The notes under the pieces were generated by a model. That model had not been told where the DNA came from. It saw only the letters and a list, made by a program, of their open reading frames with translations, and made no database searches. Made by a program: the position numbers and the translations under genes. From NCBI GenBank assembly GCA_951406725.2, contig OX597825.1, positions 49,166,001-49,230,000 on the forward strand: DNA of 64,000 nucleotides. Direction: 5' to 3'. Source of the stretch: Octopus vulgaris. Taxonomy: Eukaryota. Shown piece after piece: positions 1,548 through 63,374 of this stretch (position 1 is the first letter of the stretch; every line of letters starts with the position of its first letter).

Positions 1548-2968
1548 CACAGTCATGGAACGGATAGTCAGATGGAAGATAATCGCATTCCTTGAAAAAA
1601 AATAAATTGCTAAGTGATACTCAAAATGGTTTTCGATCAGGTAGGAGCTGCCTGACCCGGCTCTTACAACATTATGACTGGGTGTTGAGGCAGTTACTCA
1701 ACAAATCAAATGTGGATGTAATATACCTTGATTTTGCAAAAGCTGTTGACAAGGTGGATCATGGTATGATATGCCACATACTGCGTGGCCTCGGCATAGC
1801 TGGAAAACTTGGAGTGTGGTTACATGACTTCCTGAATGATAGGAGTCACTCAGTAGTGGTTAATGGAGCCACCTCTATGAACACACAAATAGTGAACGGT
1901 GTTCCACAGGGCACTGTCTTGGGACCACTGCTTTTTATAGTGGCCCTCTCAGATATGTCCTCAAATGCCCGGATACCCACTCTGGTAAGCTATGCATATA
2001 ATACGAAAATCTCACAGAAAATACAGAACACCAGCGATGACACACCTGCAGCAGGAGTTGGACCCAATTTACAGATGGGCTGAGGATAATAATATGCAGT
2101 TTAATGCTGAGAAATTACAGGCCCTGTGCTACCAGCATCCAAAACTGAATATTAAACATACAGGGTACACCGGTCCACATGGAATTTCAATCCCAGAGCC
2201 TAAGTCAGTGAGGGACCTGGGTATCGATATGAGTAGTGATACCTCTTTCCAAGTGCACATTACCAGGATGGCGACAAAGTGCAGACGACTGGCTGGATGG
2301 ATCTTAAGAACATTCAGAACCAGAGATAAGGAAACCATGATGGTCCTCTGGCGGACATTCGTCCTCAGCCGCCTGGATTACTGCTCACAGCTATGGTCAC
2401 CCACCAGTATAAAATTAACAGCGGACCTTGAAGCAATCCAGAGAAGATTCACAAAGAAGATCATCTCTTTGCAACAGCTCAGCTACTGGGAAAGGCCGAA
2501 ACAGCTAAGACTCTACTCCCTGGAGAGAAGACGGGAGAGGTATGCAGTAATATATATCTGGAAGATCATGGAAGAAATTGTGCCAAATTTTGGCATTGAA
2601 AGCTACACCAATGCCAGAACGGGACGACACTGCATGGTATCAAAGATTCTAGCAATGCCATCACGCTTCAGGAGCAGTTACTGCAACAGCCTGGGTTTCA
2701 AGGGCCCACATCTTTTTAATATTCTCCCAAAGAGTCTGAGAAACTTGCACAAAGTAGATGTAGGGGCTTTTAAATCAAAGCTGGACCTCTTCCTGTCGAG
2801 AGTCCCAGATGAGCCTACCTCAAGGCAAGAGGTGCAAATGAGGGTAGCTATATCAAACTCCATTCTTCATCAAGTTCCACATATTAGAGGAGGCTCTTAG
2901 TAATAACAGTGTAGCGCAAAACGGCGGTGCATCAGCATGGCCGCAGATCTGAGCTGAAACTTTAAAAA
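1548..2968 (+). mobile_element. 5'-truncated CR1/L2-group LINE, RT and C-terminal part of ORF2, frameshifted
   Basis: Motifs QNGFRSGRSC, YLDFAKAVDKVDH, GVPQGTVLGPLLF, RDLG, SRLDYCSQLWSP, LYSLERRRER. Catalytic YADD reads YAYN and there is a frameshift near 2000-2040. Confidence 0.92.
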
Positions 2969-8485: not shown

Positions 8486-9709
8486 CTATGTACAATGCAA
8501 TATTTTTTTCATGTCTTTTCTGAAAATTGGATTCATGAAAGCATATATAGCAGGGTTGGCAACATTATACATAAAATACATATAAAATACAATTTTGTTC
8601 TGTGGGAGAACTGCATGCGCCATTAACCAGCCTGGAAGAAATGCTATGACAAATACCAACGTCACAACAAAAAGTACGCCGGCAATTTTCAGGTTTGAAG
8701 ACTGAGTCCGTTCTTTAACTTTATCATGTTTTCGCTGAGTCCTCTTTGATGCACCATCTTTTCCATTTTTCACTGTATCTTTCTTTCCTGCTTTTGTTGC
8801 TTCCGTAGCATTATTTTCGCACGTTTCATCTAGTACAGTATCTTGTGTCACAGTAGTAGACGTGGGAGCTGTGTATTTGGTCTTGTTGCGCCAAGATCTT
8901 TTCAGTACAACAAATCTTACAATTAGAGCATAAAGTACAGCAATGATTAGAAAGGAAACCAAAAATAGAAATGAATAAAACTTTTGATAAGCTTTGCGTG
9001 TTGATTCATTTATGATGATAATATTAGGACCACATTCAGCAGAGTAATTGTAAGTATAACTTGGCACAGGAGATGATTTAAGTCTATTTTCGAATCCAAA
9101 TAGCAAAGTATCGTTGTAGGCTTCAGTTCGTATATCTAAGCTGCCAACGGTTGTATTATAATCACCTGGTATTTCATACTTCTTATACATACCATGCATA
9201 AGACTGGTGAAGACGCCAAGGCCGATTGCTGAGAGACCAAGTGTGGAAATAAGTATTTTCGCCCTTTTTACGGTCATCACTCCAAGAAAAGGATGGCAAA
9301 TACAAAAGTAACGATCGAATGCGATAGCTACCATAATAAACATTGAAAATGGCACATTCGATGTTATTAAGAAGAAATACATTTTGCAAAAGCCATCATA
9401 GACGACCTTGTATTCAAGAGATTCCACTATCACTGTAAACGGAATCACAACCATGCAGGTAAATAAGTCGACAATTGCTAAACTTATTATGAAGATGTTA
9501 GATGTTACTTTCTCTTTCTTATTGGAATAAATATAAACCACAATAGCATTTCCGATGCTTCCAAGAACGGAGAAAGTCAAAAGCTGGACGATTAGCACGT
9601 AAACTCGCCACTCGTATTCGCCAGATGAATTGCTAATTGTTGCGACATTCACGTCTGTCTCTTCTGTTCTATTAGCCATTCCTGGTAGATGAGTGACTGC
9701 ATTTTCCAT
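8486..9709 (-). CDS. Class A (rhodopsin-like) peptide GPCR, orphan, CCK/orexin-receptor-like; 407 aa in one coding exon
   Basis: Seven hydrophobic segments; GN in TM1, LAIVD in TM2, C before TM3, AFDRYFCICHP, NPAIY in TM7. Acceptor ttctttctctctcAG lies 1 nt upstream of ATG 9709; stop at 8486-8488. Confidence 0.95.
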   Translation of the reverse strand: MENAVTHLPGMANRTEETDVNVATISNSSGEYEWRVYVLIVQLLTFSVLGSIGNAIVVYIYSNKKEKVTSNIFIISLAIVDLFTCMVVIPFTVIVESLEYKVVYDGFCKMYFFLITSNVPFSMFIMVAIAFDRYFCICHPFLGVMTVKRAKILISTLGLSAIGLGVFTSLMHGMYKKYEIPGDYNTTVGSLDIRTEAYNDTLLFGFENRLKSSPVPSYTYNYSAECGPNIIIINESTRKAYQKFYSFLFLVSFLIIAVLYALIVRFVVLKRSWRNKTKYTAPTSTTVTQDTVLDETCENNATEATKAGKKDTVKNGKDGASKRTQRKHDKVKERTQSSNLKIAGVLFVVTLVFVIAFLPGWLMAHAVLPQNKIVFYMYFMYNVANPAIYAFMNPIFRKDMKKILHCT

Positions 9710-9710
9710 C

Positions 9711-9730
9711 CTGAGAGAGAAAGAAAACAA
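9711..9730 (-). other. Splice acceptor (polypyrimidine tract + AG) of the GPCR coding exon
   Basis: Minus strand reads ttgttttctttctctctcag|GATGGAAAAT. Confidence 0.85.
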
Positions 9731-10396
9731 AACTAATTAGAATAATTAACTCAAAAAAATCGCATAAAATAACAGAAAAAAAGAACAAATCAAAACAAAG
9801 GAAAACAATATAAAGTGAAAAATCAATTCCAGCTCGAATTGAAAATTAATAAAATACTTCTGACCACCACCATCATCATCACTACCCCCAGCACCGACAC
9901 CACCAACCATTCAAACCGTCCATCACTGCCACCGCCGCAACCACCAGCACTACTGCCTCGACTACTATTACTGAAGGCAGTGTAGGGCAGATTACCTTGT
10001 GCCAAAAACCCTGTGCCGAAAACCATGCTAATCAAGCTGAACTGATTTTCACTTTTATAATTCTAACGTAGATGAAATAAATACAATCAATGTATTGAAG
10101 CTACGTGACTTAGCTATACTTTCAAAATGAGAAATATTCTTTCATGTTAAATTTATTGCAAAATTTTCTTTTTTTTGGTGTTTGAATTTGCCTGACTCTT
10201 AATGTAATTTTACAATGCTTTGTATTTAGAGGAGGCCAAGGAGTTAACACGTAAAACTAAATGTAGTTTACAAATCGGAGATTATAATTTCTAGAGATAT
10301 TGAACGAAGCTGAACCCCGAGTGGATGAAAGGCAAAGTCTTCCCCGCTAAGTATTTCATCCGTCGTGCCATCTCACCGCCTTACTAATTAGAAATA

Positions 10397-27953: not shown

Positions 27954-28679
27954 TTGCCTGTCTGTGTTTGCCTTTCAAGTGCTGTGGTTTTACTGAGATC
28001 TCCCTTTTAGTAGAAAGAATAACTATAACTCTTTGACTGCTATTTCTAAATTCGGTGTGTGGTGAGGCAAATCGTTGCTAAACCCTTAATTACTTAGTAT
28101 TACTTAAACTTTCCTCGAATGAGGCTTTTACATGCCGAAATCTACTTGGTGAAATTAAAGATTATTCCAAATTAATTAATTTCACCCTATATTATTACTG
28201 ATAACCATATTTCATCCCAGTAAATGACCACAACATCTTGTCTTGGCTGCACGCTGGTGGGAGGGGGTTGGTGACACAAACTTTCATTCACACTTTGAAT
28301 TTGGTGATACTGGTAACGGCTTTAGCTCGCTCTGATACTGAGTTGAGATGATGTCTTCTAGTACCTCGAAATTTAATATACAATTATTCATAATTGTAGT
28401 GTCCTACGCTGATGAGAAAAGAAGTTGGGTAAGACATAATTATCTAATTCTTATGCTTTCCTAAGACTTAATTTCGAAACGTACGTCCGTAGGTGACTTA
28501 AAATTGTATGATAGATTGCCGTCATTTCTTTCTCTTTTGCCTGTCTGTGTTTGCCTTTCAAGTGCTGTTGTTTTACTGAGATCTCCCTTTTAGTAGAAAG
28601 AATAGCTATAACTCTTTGACTGCTATTTCTAAATTCGGTGTGTGGTGAGGCAAATCGTTGCTAAACCCTTAATTACTTA

Positions 28680-28683
<4 letters not shown>
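27954..28683 (+). mobile_element. Retrozyme-like / Penelope pLTR-like partial tandem (583-bp unit) containing a hammerhead
   Basis: 147-bp direct repeats at 27954-28100 and 28537-28683 (two mismatches), flanked by (TA)n on both sides. Confidence 0.8.
28403..28493 (+). ncRNA. Type I hammerhead ribozyme, intact core
   Basis: cctacg-CTGATGA-gaaa..(long stem II)..tttc-GAAA-cgtacg-TC-cgtagg; palindromic stem III; predicted cleavage after GUC at 28487. Confidence 0.88.
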
Positions 28684-28727
<44 letters not shown>

Positions 28728-28729
<2 letters not shown>

Positions 28730-28865
28730 GTAAATGTAATATGTGACAATTATTCGGTAGCCATGATAAAACTCCGATTTTCGGATGGCGGTGTGGAAAT
28801 CCACGCCGCCATCTCTTCAGTTATCCGGCCATCGGAAAAATTGCTCTCACATATTACATTTACAG
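28728..28865 (-). ncRNA. Type I hammerhead ribozyme with long stem I, one stem III mismatch
   Basis: Minus: gataa-CTGAAGA-gatggcggcgtgga(tt)tccacaccgccatc-c-GAAA-atcggag-TT-ttatc, enclosed by ctgtaaatgtaatatgtga / tcacatattacatttacag. Confidence 0.75.
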
Positions 28866-30093
28866 ATAAATTTCTCTATTTGCATAATATCGAAGTCTCT
28901 TTCATTTTTTGTTGTCTTACTATTTTTATCAATATATATATATATATATATATATATGCATGTGTGTGTGTAGAGAATTAATGAGTTTAATTACTACAGA
29001 GACAGAGAAAATGAGAGAGAGAAAGGGGAGAGACGGAAAGTGAGAGTGGGGAGAGACGGTAAGAGAGAGGGAGTAAGTGAGGAGGAGGATGGATTTTAAC
29101 AACATCAAAAATATATCAGTTCCTCATTTAATATGTGAATTCTGATATTATGCAAACTATGGAATCGTACTAAGGAAATGGTGTCATGCAAATTCCGTGA
29201 TTGCATGTGTGTCTTACACAATTGTGTTTAATGCCAATAGTGGTATTATATTCTTCATGGGAATGAACACTAATGTAATATCCCGGGCGATTTTACTCGA
29301 AGCTTGTGCGATAATGTCTGTTATTCTAGGAAAGGAGAAACATAAAATTTATAGGATGACATGTAAACGTACCAAATCAGGTAGAAAATTTGAAATAGTG
29401 AACCTGATACATGGTGAGTAAATCATTCGCCGAAACGAAGAAACTTCGCTGACGTCTTGAGGGACAAGTAACATTTCTAATGTTTAAAATACCTGCTATG
29501 GAAATGTTATACTTCACTTTATATACATGCACATAAGTTTGTATGTATGTATGTATGTGTGTGTGAGTGTGAGTGTGTGTGTGAGTGTGAGTGTGTGTGT
29601 GAGTGTGAGTGTGTGTGTGTATAGAAAATCTCTATAAGAGATGAACGTAGTAACTATACTGAGAAGTAGCAATACTTGCCTTCTATATATATATAAATGG
29701 CAATCTCTGCCTGTCTCTCTAACCGTTACCATCTTAGTTCCTAAACCAGCGAACTAATATTCACGAAAGTGTTCATACATCATACTCTAACAACTAGTTC
29801 AATAAGAGGCTGATTGGATTCCAATAAAAGTCTATAATGTGCACCCCTGGGCGTTGGACTAATTATATGAGAAAATGAGAAGTGTTCAAAAAGTATTAGT
29901 CTGACGGAAAGGCAGTAACAGAGAGAGAGTGAGAGAGACAGAGAGAGGGAGAGAGGGTGAGGGAGAGAGAAAGAGGTGAGGCAAGAATACATAGATTTCA
30001 GGAGAGACAGGGGAGGCATTCTCTGAAGTGGAATAAATAACAAATTATAAAAGACATTGTAAAAATTGCCTGGCAACGATGGGCTATTCAACT

Positions 30094-30145
<52 letters not shown>

Positions 30146-30799
30146 TATCGGGTGCAGATTATATCGAGAACTAGCTGGGAGGCTCATTCTGTGGTAACGT
30201 TGATTTGTAAGGAACGGCTACTTTGATGAGGCGATAAATGTCATTTCAGTGTATAGTTACTACTAACATCTATAGAGATTTTCCCGCTAACTACTTTGCT
30301 CGCTGCAGGATAATGACTGAGTAACGCTTGTTTATGTCTATACATTGTTAGCTGGAGCAACTTATTGCTATTTCCAGTGGACGGGTGTTTACCACCAACA
30401 ATAGACAAAGATGACTCTGGACCGCACAGTCTGATGATCGCGTAATCTGCTGGAAGATGGTAGGGTTTCGTTCCTCTGTTTGCAATGTATTTAACTCAAG
30501 GAAGCTCCTCCTTGAGATAAAAATGAATCTAGTAGGAAGTTATATTAATTGAGGTGGAAAGTGGGAGGAAGAAGGAAGGTTGGTGTATAGTAGACATATG
30601 TACGTATGTAAGTATATATATGCATGTATGTATGTATGTATGTATGTATGTATGTATGTATGTATGTATGTATGTATGTATGTATGTATGTATGTATGTG
30701 TGTGTCTGTGTGTGTATTTCTTTGCAACGGAGAGCAGAAAACCTACCTACCCCGTCTCTACTTACTGCGTAGCAGACTCTAATTTACGTTAAGGATAAT

Positions 30800-31400
30800 A
30801 ATTACAGTCGCAACACATATATGGATTTCTTCGATAATACCATGGGTGTATCGGACTCATCCCAGGTTATTGACCTAGTTGACCTATTCCTTTTCTCCCA
30901 AATTAAACAATATTTCCTCAACCTCTCGGGTGGGATATGCAGGGATGATACACTCCTTTTAGCTGCTGGATTATCTCGACCGTCAGCGGAATGCACCAAG
31001 AAAGCCCTACACAAATGTCTTTAAAATTATAACTTGAATATTTCATTCGAAATTGACATTAAGCTGACCAATTTTTAGATGTTACTCTCGACATCAACAC
31101 AGATTTATATCAACCTTTCAATAAACACAACCAATCCTTACAATATAAAAATGCTTTCTGAAATCACTCAAAACTCATCCGTAATACAGTGGTCAGGGTC
31201 ACATCTACCAGAATCTCTAACTTATCTGCTAATGAAGACATTTTAACACTCACGCCCCTTATTATCATCAGGCCGTCCAAATAAGCGGCTTCCGCAAAAA
31301 TTCTATTCTATCCACAGTACAAAGCTTAACACTAGAAAAACCCACCTCTTTCCCTAATACTAACCCTGAATCTACGGACACTGCTTCCACTCTACACTAA
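30800..31400 (+). mobile_element. Penelope-like element RT fragment
   Basis: FDNTMGVSDSSQVIDLVDLFL, GGICRDD, FLDVTLDINT. Confidence 0.82.
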
Positions 31401-56939: not shown

Positions 56940-59120
56940 TTCATGCCTGATTACAAACCTTTCCTTTTCCACTTCCACCACCACCTAAAGAAAAACACAT
57001 TTCGAGACTTCCTTTCTGCTGCTATCAACCTTGTATTAACTTTTCCCTACTAATTTAAAAAAAAAACACGCTTCTTCAGCACGTTTCCTTTCTCAGTCGC
57101 TGCCTTCCTCACCGCCTCATCCCTAAAGTTTTCCGCCTCCATTTCCACCCTACTCTCCACTCTGCTTCAACAATCCTACCCATTTTCCGTACTACATCCT
57201 ACCGCCTTATGCGTGCCACCATTCGTACTAATCTCTCCAAAATACACACTATCGACCGCCTTCTCCCTCTTGCTTTTACCATCTTCTCCTCTCAGTTGCC
57301 CTCCCATACTAACATTACTTTACGTTACACAATTCATTTAAATCACCTCTTTCATCAATTTCTCGTTCACACCAAACAACGTAAACTCTACTCACTCCTC
57401 CATTCCATCACACCCAAAGCCACTACCCTAACTCCCCCTACCCCTCTCCCTCTCTGATACGCTCCTCCTACATCACCAAACCACTGACACTCCTAACCCC
57501 CACCCACATATCCCTCATTCTCTCCCTCCCAGCCTTCCACCACTCCACCACCCCTCCTACTTCTGTCCCATCCACGCCTTCTCCACTTGAGTCTATTGTT
57601 ACCATTCCTCCCCATCTTCACCTCTCTGAGGCGGAGCGCTCCCTCCTCATTAGGGGTCTACGTTTTATTCCGCTCAATCCATCCAATAACGAATTTCGGA
57701 CAAGTACCGAAATCCACGGCTTTATGCGCCGCGTTAGCTTGTGTGAGCTTTTCTGCGACACTCCACCTGCATCTAATGAGGAGGACTGCTTCACCGACCT
57801 GGGCCACCGACCATCCCAGTGGCCGCCAGCTCCTGGCCAGTTCCAAGCAGTCGATCTTTTTGCGGGCGTTTGCCAGCACGCTGTGTATCAGTTTGAATCT
57901 TTCAAGTGTCCTCGATATCTGAACATCTCCCCAGCCGAACTCTCGCCCTTCGATGTCTCCGACGCCGCACGGACATCATCATAAAATCGGCTGACAAGGG
58001 TGGAGCAGTGGCGGTGTGACGCCCGGACCTCTACAAAGCGTAAGCTCTCCGCCAACTTCAAGACACCTTATTTTACTGCCCTCTGCCCTCCATCCCCACA
58101 CCTAGCTACCAACAGACAATATCCTCCACTATCCATGAGGTCATCTCCTGCTCCCGTCTCTAACCTCATTGTCCACAAACCTAGCAATCCTGGCCGCCCC
58201 ATCGTCTCCGCCTGCAACTACCACACCGAACTCATCTCCGAATATCTTGACCGTGTCCTTGCCTCCCTAGTGTCTTCCATCCCCTCTCCCATCCATGACA
58301 CCAATTATGCTCTTCCTTTGCTCAACTCTTTCTCCTTCCCTCCTGGCCCCTCTAAACTTCTCTTCACTCTTGACATAAAGAGCCTATACACGGTGATCCC
58401 TCACCACGAGGGACTGCGTGCACTCCAATATTTCCTTGAACTTCGACTCAACCCCCAACCTGACACATCCACACTCCGTCTGACCGAACTTGTTCTCTCA
58501 CTTAACTGCTTCTCGTTCGCGGATGATTTTTACCAGCAGGCCTCGAGAGTGGCCATGGGAACGAGAAAGGATCTCAACTATGCGAGCTTGTTCGTTGGCT
58601 AGGTTGAGGCCCAAATATATTGAAGCTTCACTAGTCCCACCCCCGAACGATGCGGTCGTTATGTTGACGACTGTATTGGTGCGACCTCACTTACCTGCAA
58701 ACATCTAGACTCCTTCCTCTCTTTTGTCAAATCTTTCCATCCTGCCCTCCACTTTTCCTGCATTATTTCCGACATTTCAGTTGCCTTTCTCGACATTTTG
58801 GTCAGCATTCATCACACCACCCTCACCACTTCATCCACTGCAGACATACAGACTCACAATCATACCTCAACTTTTCCTCCTCCCACACTAAACACACCAA
58901 GCTCTCCATCCCCTATTCCCAATTCCTCCGTCTATGCAGGCTCTGCAATGACGTCCATGACTTTGAGACTAAGTCTCATTTCATGGCTCGCCACTTCATA
59001 CTACGTTGATTCTCCTCATCACTATCCACATCGCCCTCGCCTGAGCACTCTCCGTGAACCATGCATCTGCTCTCCTCTATGCACCCATCATCGACCCTAT
59101 CATATCACTCACTCCTGCAG
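56940..59120 (+). mobile_element. Penelope-like retroelement ORF (N-terminal region and RT), pseudogenised, no GIY-YIG end seen
   Basis: IIIKSADK, PGRPIVS, LFTLDIKSLYT, AMGT, RYVDD, AFLD, SIPYSQFLRL. Confidence 0.92.
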
Positions 59121-59487
59121 TTGAATTCCCTTTTGAAGTCAAAATACAACACAAGCATTTGAACGAATCTAAAGTTCATTCATTTCGAATCACTTCTTAG
59201 TGCTGTGAATACTTTGTGTGTGTGTGTGTATGTATATATATATATATTATAATATAAAAGGCTATTAATGTGTGTAAAAGTCAAACGCGTTGATGGGACT
59301 CTAAAAATCAAACTACTTTTAGATTCCCATTATAGCGTGTGGCATTTACACACAGTAAAAGCCCTTGATATAATGAAATCTATATATAAAGGAAAAAAGA
59401 GAAACATTGGATTAATTTGTTTCCTTAATTGGTTTACATGCTGGCTACTCGATAAAATCTTATATAGATTTTATCCTTATATGTATA

Positions 59488-61688: not shown

Positions 61689-62909
61689 ATATATATATAT
61701 ATATATCCATCTCTCTTTTAGTCAGCCAGTCTGTTTGTCTCTCTGTTTAGCAATCTATGGATATAGCTAGCTATCCATACATACATGTATGTATGTGTAT
61801 ATAATATATGAGTTGAAAATGAATACAACAAGATATTCGAAAACAAGGGAGATAACAGAGATGTGAAGATAAGATATTTATCATCGACTTTGTAATGAAT
61901 CTTGAAAATAGAATAAAAAATATTTAGTAAATATATAACAAGAATGTATATAACATTTTTGGAGTGGTATCAAGAAAATTCTCTGATTTACAGAGAAAAT
62001 TTACAGGCACAGAAATACATGTTGATGAATAAATGTGTAAGAGTGGTAATCGGTGATATGTTAGAAAGAATATAATTAAAGTTACCGAAGAGAACTATAA
62101 AGTTAAATGTATTTGTATGTGTGTGTGTGTGTGTGTGTGAAAGACAGATGGGAGAGAAAGAGGCATGTGCGTATGAGTGGGCGTATATGCACATATGTGT
62201 ACACACACATGTACTATATGTACGTGCACAAATAATTACATGTACGCACAAACACACATGCACGCACACACACTTACACCCCCCACACACACACACATTA
62301 AGACTTAGTTTTGCGCAGCCATGATTCTAAAAGTTTTGAATTTTGAGAGGAGTAGGACATTTTTGATACTAATATACATACACATATAGTAATGAAAAAA
62401 AGAAATAATCCATGGATGGAATTTATAAATATTTTAATGCATCGCTACACATGTTATGAAGGTCCTGCTTTACAAAAAAAAAAAAGAAAAAGAAAAAAGG
62501 ATAAAAATTCGACTGAAATTCCTAAACATAGTGCTTCAGTATGGTTGCAGACTGAAGCAAATAAAAGGTTGGAGGTAAAATGCAAAATTAAATACAGTAA
62601 ATTTGTGGTTTGCATTAAATATCTATTTCGATTTTCGTGTCTTTTTTTATGCTCAAAATATCTAGGGAGGGAGCGAATAACGTTATTGATATTATCGATT
62701 GTATATATATATATATATATATTATATAATTAGGGCTTAGTAAAATAAATTACTTTGCCACATACTGGACTTAGTAGAAATAGCAGCCAAAAAAAATTTT
62801 CTTAGCATTTCTACTACTTAAAGAAAATTTCTCTCAGATAATGTTTACTCCAGACAGCTCACGAAGGTTTGGGGGTAAATACAGAAAAATATCACAAGTA
62901 CATAGATCG

Positions 62910-62972
62910 TTTGAGTACGTCAACGTTTCAAGATTAGCCAAATAAAATCAGCATTTCTTTCGTCAGCTCAAA
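62910..62972 (-). ncRNA. Type I hammerhead ribozyme, intact core
   Basis: Minus: tttgag-CTGACGA-aaga..tctt-GAAA-cgttgacg-TA-ctcaaa. Confidence 0.87.
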
Positions 62973-63374
62973 ATTTCTTAATTTGGATTTGGAAACACTA
63001 AAAAGAAGGAACTTTACCTATCAGCGAACTTGTCGCTTCAGATGAACCACTCCAACTAACAGTGTCAACAAATTCAAAATGCGCAGGCGTAAAATTCTGC
63101 ACTCCCCATTCTACCCACGTGGTCTATCTAGCAAACATCATATTTTAACCGCGAGAACCGAGGCAGTATGACCGAGAGAAATGAATCATAATATCAACAA
63201 TTGAGGGTAAAATTAATTAATTATATATATATATGATTTTGATTTTTGATTTTTCCAGTTTCAGCTAATGAGCTGTGGCCATGCTGAGGCATATATATAT
63301 ATATATATATATATACAATCGATAATATATATTTGATTAGAGTGAAGTGAATCAAAAATCGTGAGGTAATTAGT

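Follow-up and report, generated by a model that had tools for sequence, protein, structure and literature searches.

An insertion in (TA)n of the Octopus vulgaris genome holds 1.25 copies of a 583-nt non-coding unit. This unit is probably a non-autonomous element of the retrozyme type, which a TA-targeting Penelope-like reverse transcriptase (RT)/endonuclease pasted into place from a fixed internal start. We analyzed a stretch of 64,000 nucleotides (64 kb), called the window here, and all coordinates are positions in it. The insert (27954-28683; 730 nt, 36% GC) opens with a left direct repeat, a 5'-truncated partial unit of 147 nt on the + strand (27954-28100), and goes on with one full unit (28101-28683, +), whose closing part is the right direct repeat (28537-28683, +). 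The two repeats are offset by 583 nt and differ by two mismatches, at 27986 and 28022. The last letters of the right repeat, 28680-28683, are the fixed 3' end of the unit and the putative RT start. On the left, a (CA)n tract (27903-27935) is followed by (TA)n (27936-27953), with the 5' junction at 27952-27954; on the right stands (TA)23 (28681-28726), the putative target. TAT at 28680-28683 is common to the 3' end of the unit and the (TA)n target. Since both flanks are (TA)n, a target-site duplication, which exceeds 4 bp in non-LTR retrozymes when present, is unreadable here.

The unit does not appear to encode a protein. Its longest stop-free frame is 69 amino acids, doubling the unit produced no longer one, and we recognized no coding remnant by eye in the three sense frames. 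The 436 nt between the direct repeats are likewise non-coding, without the RT plus GIY-YIG open reading frame (ORF) that marks an autonomous Penelope-like element. The organization is not of the LTR type either, with the hammerhead of the unit lying outside the direct repeats. Plant LTR retrozymes have a type III hammerhead inside each LTR, whereas this motif is of type I and stands outside the repeats. A sequence-only reading of this DNA had described 147-bp direct repeats with two mismatches and a period of 583, TA repeats on both sides and a non-coding core, and our analysis agrees with it on all of these. There is no second inverted arm at the 27954-28683 locus. Two neighboring pieces were considered for this role and rejected, neither having a match to the unit. 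One, located between two TA tracts (27807-27895), measures 90 bp, is non-repetitive and contains an inverted repeat. The other is a high-copy MITE-like element in the TA tract to the right of the insertion (28727-28926); it folds as one long hairpin and has terminal inverted repeats of about 20 bp (28728-28866).

The unit carries a type I hammerhead (28403-28493, +), identified by a descriptor match, with a predicted cut after 28487. Stem I (28403-28408 with 28488-28493) has 6 Watson-Crick pairs and leads into a CUGAUGA core (28409-28415). Stem II occupies 60 nt (28416-28475) and is opened by a G10.1-C11.1 base pair; then come GAAA (28476-28479), a palindromic 8-nt stem III (28479-28486) and C17 (28487). 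The motif is thus intact, with the parts that the sequence-only reading had assigned to it. On both strands of the 64-kb window, the type I descriptor found 2 motifs, compared to an average of 0.02-0.03 in 200 windows simulated with a first-order Markov model, and a looser descriptor that also permits C at core position 4 returned the same 2. A search with Rfam hammerhead models, which had been suggested as a check, did not bear the motif out: Rfam produced no match at the gathering threshold anywhere in the 64-kb window, and at E ≤ 10 the region 27900-28750 gave 21 matches, none of them a hammerhead. We infer that a long stem II together with a short stem III falls outside the Rfam models. 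Exact pattern scans of metagenome contigs and of viral contigs returned 0 matches each.

When folded alone, the 91-nt motif is not unusually stable (z = -1.66). The stem III palindrome forms no monomer hairpin in the model and is predicted to form a self-duplex at -9.8 kcal/mol, which fits dimeric cleavage as described in PMC4209133. With only one hammerhead, the locus cannot release a unit-length RNA. It is likely a dead end. According to the definition in the available text of 10.64898/2026.07.22.740005, this is not an "active" retrozyme locus; with its 1.25 units and single hammerhead, it counts as a copy of the monomer type.

The window contains a diverged relative of the unit, which we call E2 (62727-63222, - strand, 496 nt). 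It lies between TA repeats, is collinear with 28170-28680 and has the same 3' end. Identity to the 583-nt unit is 56-63%, depending on the alignment. The alignment score was 228, against 149.7 ± 10.2 for 300 shuffles, and E2 ranked first among the 508 window tiles outside the query element. The second type I hammerhead of the window belongs to E2 (62910-62972, -), with a CUGACGA core, a 4-bp stem III and a predicted cut after 62916. Four of the six stem I pairs are altered on both sides with pairing kept, as expected of compensatory change; we used only stem I from the two-sequence consensus fold, whose middle aligns poorly and which is unreliable outside the hammerhead. The distance from the predicted cut to the 3' end is 189 nt in E2 and 193-196 nt in the first element. 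E2 is predicted to fold into a long rod tipped by the hammerhead (z = -4.0; 0 of 100 shuffles), which by eye resembles the fold of the first unit. Outside its TA runs, the flanks of E2 carry the arms, near 63315 and 62690, of an inverted repeat about 13 bp long, and a 55-nt piece sits between two TA runs upstream of it.

The evidence for a wider family comes from contigs of assembled public runs. Among 24 runs listed, 20 contain the stretch and 8 have at least half of its words, from 10 studies and under four organism labels. We compared contigs of 6 runs with the unit. None of the listed runs containing the stretch is labelled as RNA; for two of the runs named below, X5 and X11, an RNA origin is a guess. 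Contigs matching one unit numbered 1,887 in X3, 498 in X8 and 158 in X11, and all 30 bins of the unit were covered in each of these runs. The unit is therefore a dispersed multi-copy family. Pieces that are 95-99% identical span most of the unit in X8 at a depth of 334-567, with the lowest pieces at about 6. If a depth of about 6 in X8 corresponds to a single copy, there would be roughly 60-95 near-identical units, although summed contig depth, taken here at an 85% identity cut and in bins that are not independent, is a crude measure and not a copy number. The depth of a single-copy flank in X3 was 40.5.

In all three runs, multi-copy contigs bridge from the fixed end to the part upstream of the hammerhead, with no ORF in between. 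These contigs cover 28164-28243 at a depth of 356 in X8, 28181-28306 at a depth of 307 in X3, and 28109-28248 and 28135-28290 in X11. The share of matching contigs that continue into unlike sequence is 0 in X3, 0 in X8 and 0.04 in X11. Where multi-copy contigs overlap, they join the unit into a closed loop that contains no ORF; the contigs listed are too short to hold two hammerheads. We rejected contig joints that go back 583 nt as proof of tandem units, because such a joint sits inside the 3' part that is present in every copy. The copy at 27954-28683 differs from the X3 family majority (at least 80% of depth) at no fewer than 11 positions among those listed, so that the element, which had been called young, is only moderately so. 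The core also occurs as a variant, CCGAUGA instead of CUGAUGA (at 28410), holding 16% of the depth in X3, 26% in X8 and 78% in X11, shares that rest on 5, 2 and 3 contigs, respectively. As a speculation held with low confidence, and given 78% in one RNA-like run versus 16% and 26% in two others, the subfamily with the CCGAUGA core may be the expressed one.

The ends of the copies point to how they were inserted. All three readable 3' ends (the first copy, E2 and one X8 contig) are at one site. The X8 contig passes from 28100 into TA and then resumes at 28495, at a depth of 5.9 and with a side of 28 nt. The 5' ends vary, lying at 27952-27954, about 28170 and 28495. Depth declines with distance upstream of 28100, with Spearman coefficients of -0.90 in X3, -0.88 in X8 and -0.70 in X11 for 22 of the 30 bins (those omitted are the five of 28108-28207, two at the edges and the last one, of 3 nt). 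Such a profile belongs to copies begun at fixed points and truncated at the 5' side, as opposed to free circular permutation; loss of divergent copies under the 85% cut could contribute to the gradient. The circularly permuted ends anticipated by the sequence-only reading were not seen in these three ends or in the depth profile. At least two joints inside the unit in X3 are to the opposite strand, like the inverted copies of Penelope-like elements. In this small sample, we thus find the traits of Penelope-type insertion: a fixed 3' end, variable 5' truncation, a partial tandem and a microsatellite target.

A second feature of the profile is a fall in depth just after about 28200, by 15-fold in X3, 23-fold in X8 and 2.5-fold in X11. 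Copying may have a second start site here, or the sequence may branch off into an autonomous element or another family. Among the loose ends listed (18 of 183 and 24 of 794 in two contig comparisons), three X8 contigs end behind 28164 and two X5 contigs behind 28197, which hints at a second start. A 682-nt contig of X11 matches only 28098-28203, the 106 nt starting at the fixed end, and some 557 nt on its upstream side do not resemble the unit. Such a contig could represent a 5' junction, a partner element or a further family.

We then considered the unit as an RNA. Folded as a circle, it reaches a predicted -139.2 kcal/mol; 60 shuffles averaged -118.5 ± 5.2 (z = -4.0), and the opposite strand came to -107.8. 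Stem I of the hammerhead forms with P > 0.8 in the circular fold, in which the unit closes into one branched structure, and does not appear when the 730-nt linear insert is folded to minimum energy. Circular and linear folding permit the same helices, so that a comparison of the two cannot decide topology. A predicted 10-bp helix (28051-28060 with 28130-28139; 28051-28139, +) surrounds an AT-rich loop that contains the fixed end, and is a candidate RT-recognition element. The listed variants in this helix keep pairing or fall in loops. Further along, a long irregular rod is predicted (28231-28572, +), in which about 28231-28290 pairs with 28501-28572, with the hammerhead at the tip. We compared 50 listed variants with the predicted fold: 24 are at unpaired positions, 18 keep a pair and 8 break one. 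The same substitutions at random places would break 16.9 ± 2.7 pairs (P about 0.001). The variants are a subset, 39 of 40 listed out of 58 plus 11 further ones from 40 listed out of 182, and were chosen by support, not by structure; 28022 was omitted because the modelled unit already has the majority letter. Judged against this modelled structure, variation in the family spares the RNA fold.

The window also holds remnants of Penelope-like elements. A decayed RT fragment with frameshifts and stops lies at 27010-27731 (-), 220 nt from the insertion. Its motifs, compared by eye one after another, are like those of Hydra-1_Obim in the available supplement of PMC8557442, which places it with the Hydra clade and makes it a plausible candidate for the partner class. 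The hammerhead and 3' end of Hydra-1_Obim, as far as the available material of that source gives them, are by eye unlike the 583-nt unit. Another decayed Penelope-like RT fragment with similar motifs is found at about 30770-31340 (+). Another Penelope-like type is represented at 57059-59121 (+) by a long, decayed ORF that stops and frameshifts interrupt, and the type I descriptor found no hammerhead near it. Pfam, run on 6 proteins of the window, named only a Penelope-type remnant at 57985-58599 (RVT_1, E 0.043) and a GPCR. The latter is an uninterrupted frame of 416 codons at 8489-9736 (-), of the rhodopsin family (PF00001, E 2e-29). Frames at 1583-2897 (+) resemble what we take to be a LINE-type reverse transcriptase remnant.

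Known Penelope-like systems share much with the unit. In the available text of PMC8557442, (TA)n is the target of Hydra-clade and many Naiad elements, Hydra elements have canonical hammerheads near the 3' end, and Penelope-like elements yield 5'-truncated partial tandems, inverted copies and tails. The unit is like the Hydra clade as described there in its (TA)n target, a hammerhead in the last 100-200 nt or so, 5' truncation, partial tandems and inverted copies, and the Hydra stem III of 3-4 bp is close to that of E2. It differs in having no RT-endonuclease ORF and a much longer stem II. According to the part of PMC11167929 at hand, a Penelope-like RT nicks AT-rich DNA and starts at fixed sites in a structured RNA region, which sets the ends of the element. 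The Poseidon element PAc of the green anole, studied there, is similar to the unit in that its ends come from internal RT starts in a structured region and its targets are AT-rich. Two start sites delimit a tail of 30-40 bp in PAc, whereas a second start in the unit is only hinted at, 75-100 nt beyond the first; and PAc is autonomous, unlike the unit. Minimal hammerheads of metazoan Penelope-like elements, as PMC4209133 presents them in its available portion, have the palindromic stem III, the predicted dimer and the G10.1-C11.1 pair in common with the unit. In contrast to them, the unit has a canonical stem I of 6 bp, no extra base after A9 and a far longer stem II. The sequence-only reading had suggested mobilization by a Penelope RT, and this part of it gains from the Penelope-type insertion pattern and from the TA-targeting Penelope-like elements in the window.

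These observations suggest the following course of events. Tandem source copies elsewhere would be transcribed, and their hammerheads would cut the RNA, probably after pairing into dimers by way of the palindromic stem III; ligation may then turn the monomers into circles. A Penelope-like protein would bind the structured region around 28050-28200 and nick (TA)n. Priming would take place in the AT-rich loop at 28097-28100 (equivalent to 28680-28683), with TAT common to target and template. The RT would then have copied about 730 nt. It would have passed the cleavage site some 195 nt into the copy and the unit boundary at 583 nt, ending about 48 nt before it met the cleavage site a second time. 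Since the copy spans the cleavage site, the template was either uncut or re-ligated, and a cut linear monomer would require a template jump. If the unit was indeed inserted this way, an uncut tandem transcript is somewhat the likeliest template, a re-ligated circle comes as a serious candidate at a little under even chances, and a template jump has a slim chance.

The sequence-only reading had gone further and taken a longer-than-unit copy as the footprint of a circle. By itself, such a copy does not support this, as partial tandems are an ordinary product of Penelope-like elements in the available text of PMC8557442. In one version of our preferred reading, transposition proceeds through an abundant circular RNA of 583 nt, round which the RT went 1.25 times; we give this version a modest probability. 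The copy spans the cleavage site intact, and the circular fold forms stem I within one closed, branched structure. Only about one copy's share of the depth in X3 (52 of 596,462) has the letter found here at 28022, as expected if the repeats were identical at insertion; other differences between the repeats are at 28569 and 28536. Circles have been demonstrated for the retrozymes of coral, mussel and axolotl, as reported in the accessible part of PMC7229834. Against this, an uncut tandem transcript and a ligated circle leave the same DNA, the ligated junction restoring the genomic sequence, and thus contigs cannot separate them. The dominant substrate of the anole Penelope-like RT in vitro was uncut RNA, according to the available text of PMC11167929, and the ends of our copies are not permuted. 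This last point does not refute a circle, because Penelope-like RTs start internally and a fixed 3' end is compatible with one.

One unlikely reading, though worth weighing, sees in the unit nothing more than a pseudo-LTR (UTR plus tail) belonging to an autonomous Penelope-like family, or a derivative that arose from such a family by local deletion; the locus would then be an ordinary truncated partial tandem with no RNA life of its own. Several features are those of Penelope-like elements in the available text of PMC8557442: the fixed 3' end, truncation on the 5' side, the partial tandem, a (TA)n target and a hammerhead some 190 nt away from the end. E2 on its own looks like a 5'-truncated 3' UTR, and the sharp drop in depth after about 28200 and the 682-nt X11 contig that matches only 28098-28203 also count in favor of this reading. 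But the passage from the tail region to the region upstream of the hammerhead is crossed without an ORF in three of three runs, the unit has no coding remnant by eye and no frame above 69 amino acids, and the predicted fold covers the whole unit and is spared by its variants. A local DNA duplication of 147 bp by slippage or unequal exchange in an old repeat, with an incidental hammerhead, would suit the microsatellite-rich region and the unremarkable stability of the motif alone (z = -1.66) but is very improbable, as multi-copy contigs carry the first repeat on into the unit, the motif is kept with compensatory changes in a relative of about 60% identity, and hammerheads arise by chance at 0.02-0.03 per window.

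A retrozyme-like, Penelope-mobilized element therefore remains our preferred reading, and the unit can be placed among known retrozymes. Its assignment to this kind, made earlier from the letters, is supported by its being non-coding, multi-copy, structured and hammerhead-bearing. As in the animal non-LTR retrozymes described in the available text of PMC7229834 and 10.64898/2026.07.22.740005, it has a GC content below 50%, is dispersed and highly self-paired, coexists with Penelope-like elements, and carries a type I hammerhead in which stem I has 6 bp and stem III is short and palindromic. Its length of 583 nt is above the 150-450 bp given in the former source and within the 51-972 bp of the latter. 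It differs in its stem II of 60 nt, and a fixed 3' end in (TA)n is not part of the descriptions in the portions of these two sources at hand. Judged by the sequence-level features that we tested, the unit would work like an animal non-LTR retrozyme. The same two sources, as available, propose Penelope-like mobilization of animal retrozymes from co-occurrence and sequence relationship, and 10.64898/2026.07.22.740005 proposes descent from a pseudo-LTR for the whole retrozyme class; it also reports that 1 of 9 Xenopus retrozyme dimers was cleaved in vitro. Our literature search, which covered titles and the starts of abstracts, found no publication on cephalopod retrozymes, although supplements may list such repeats.

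The class is known, and the 583-nt unit is one more family in it and not a new principle. What it offers is a fixed 3' end, a conserved fold around this end and a diverged sister family, which together make it a suitable RNA for in vitro work with a Penelope-like RT, in which a circular template could be told from an uncut multimer. More speculatively, and with low confidence, we suggest that selection acts at the RNA level on the unit, which would persist as a folded circle of RNA, that the helix-closed AT loop is the signal where a TA-targeting Penelope-like enzyme begins to copy this circle, with a second start 75-100 nt further on, and that the hammerhead-tipped rod and the start are what is kept in a family of only about 60% identity. 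If this is true, the rod and start site maintained at that level of identity would be the minimal cis signal that retrozymes borrowed from Penelope-like elements.
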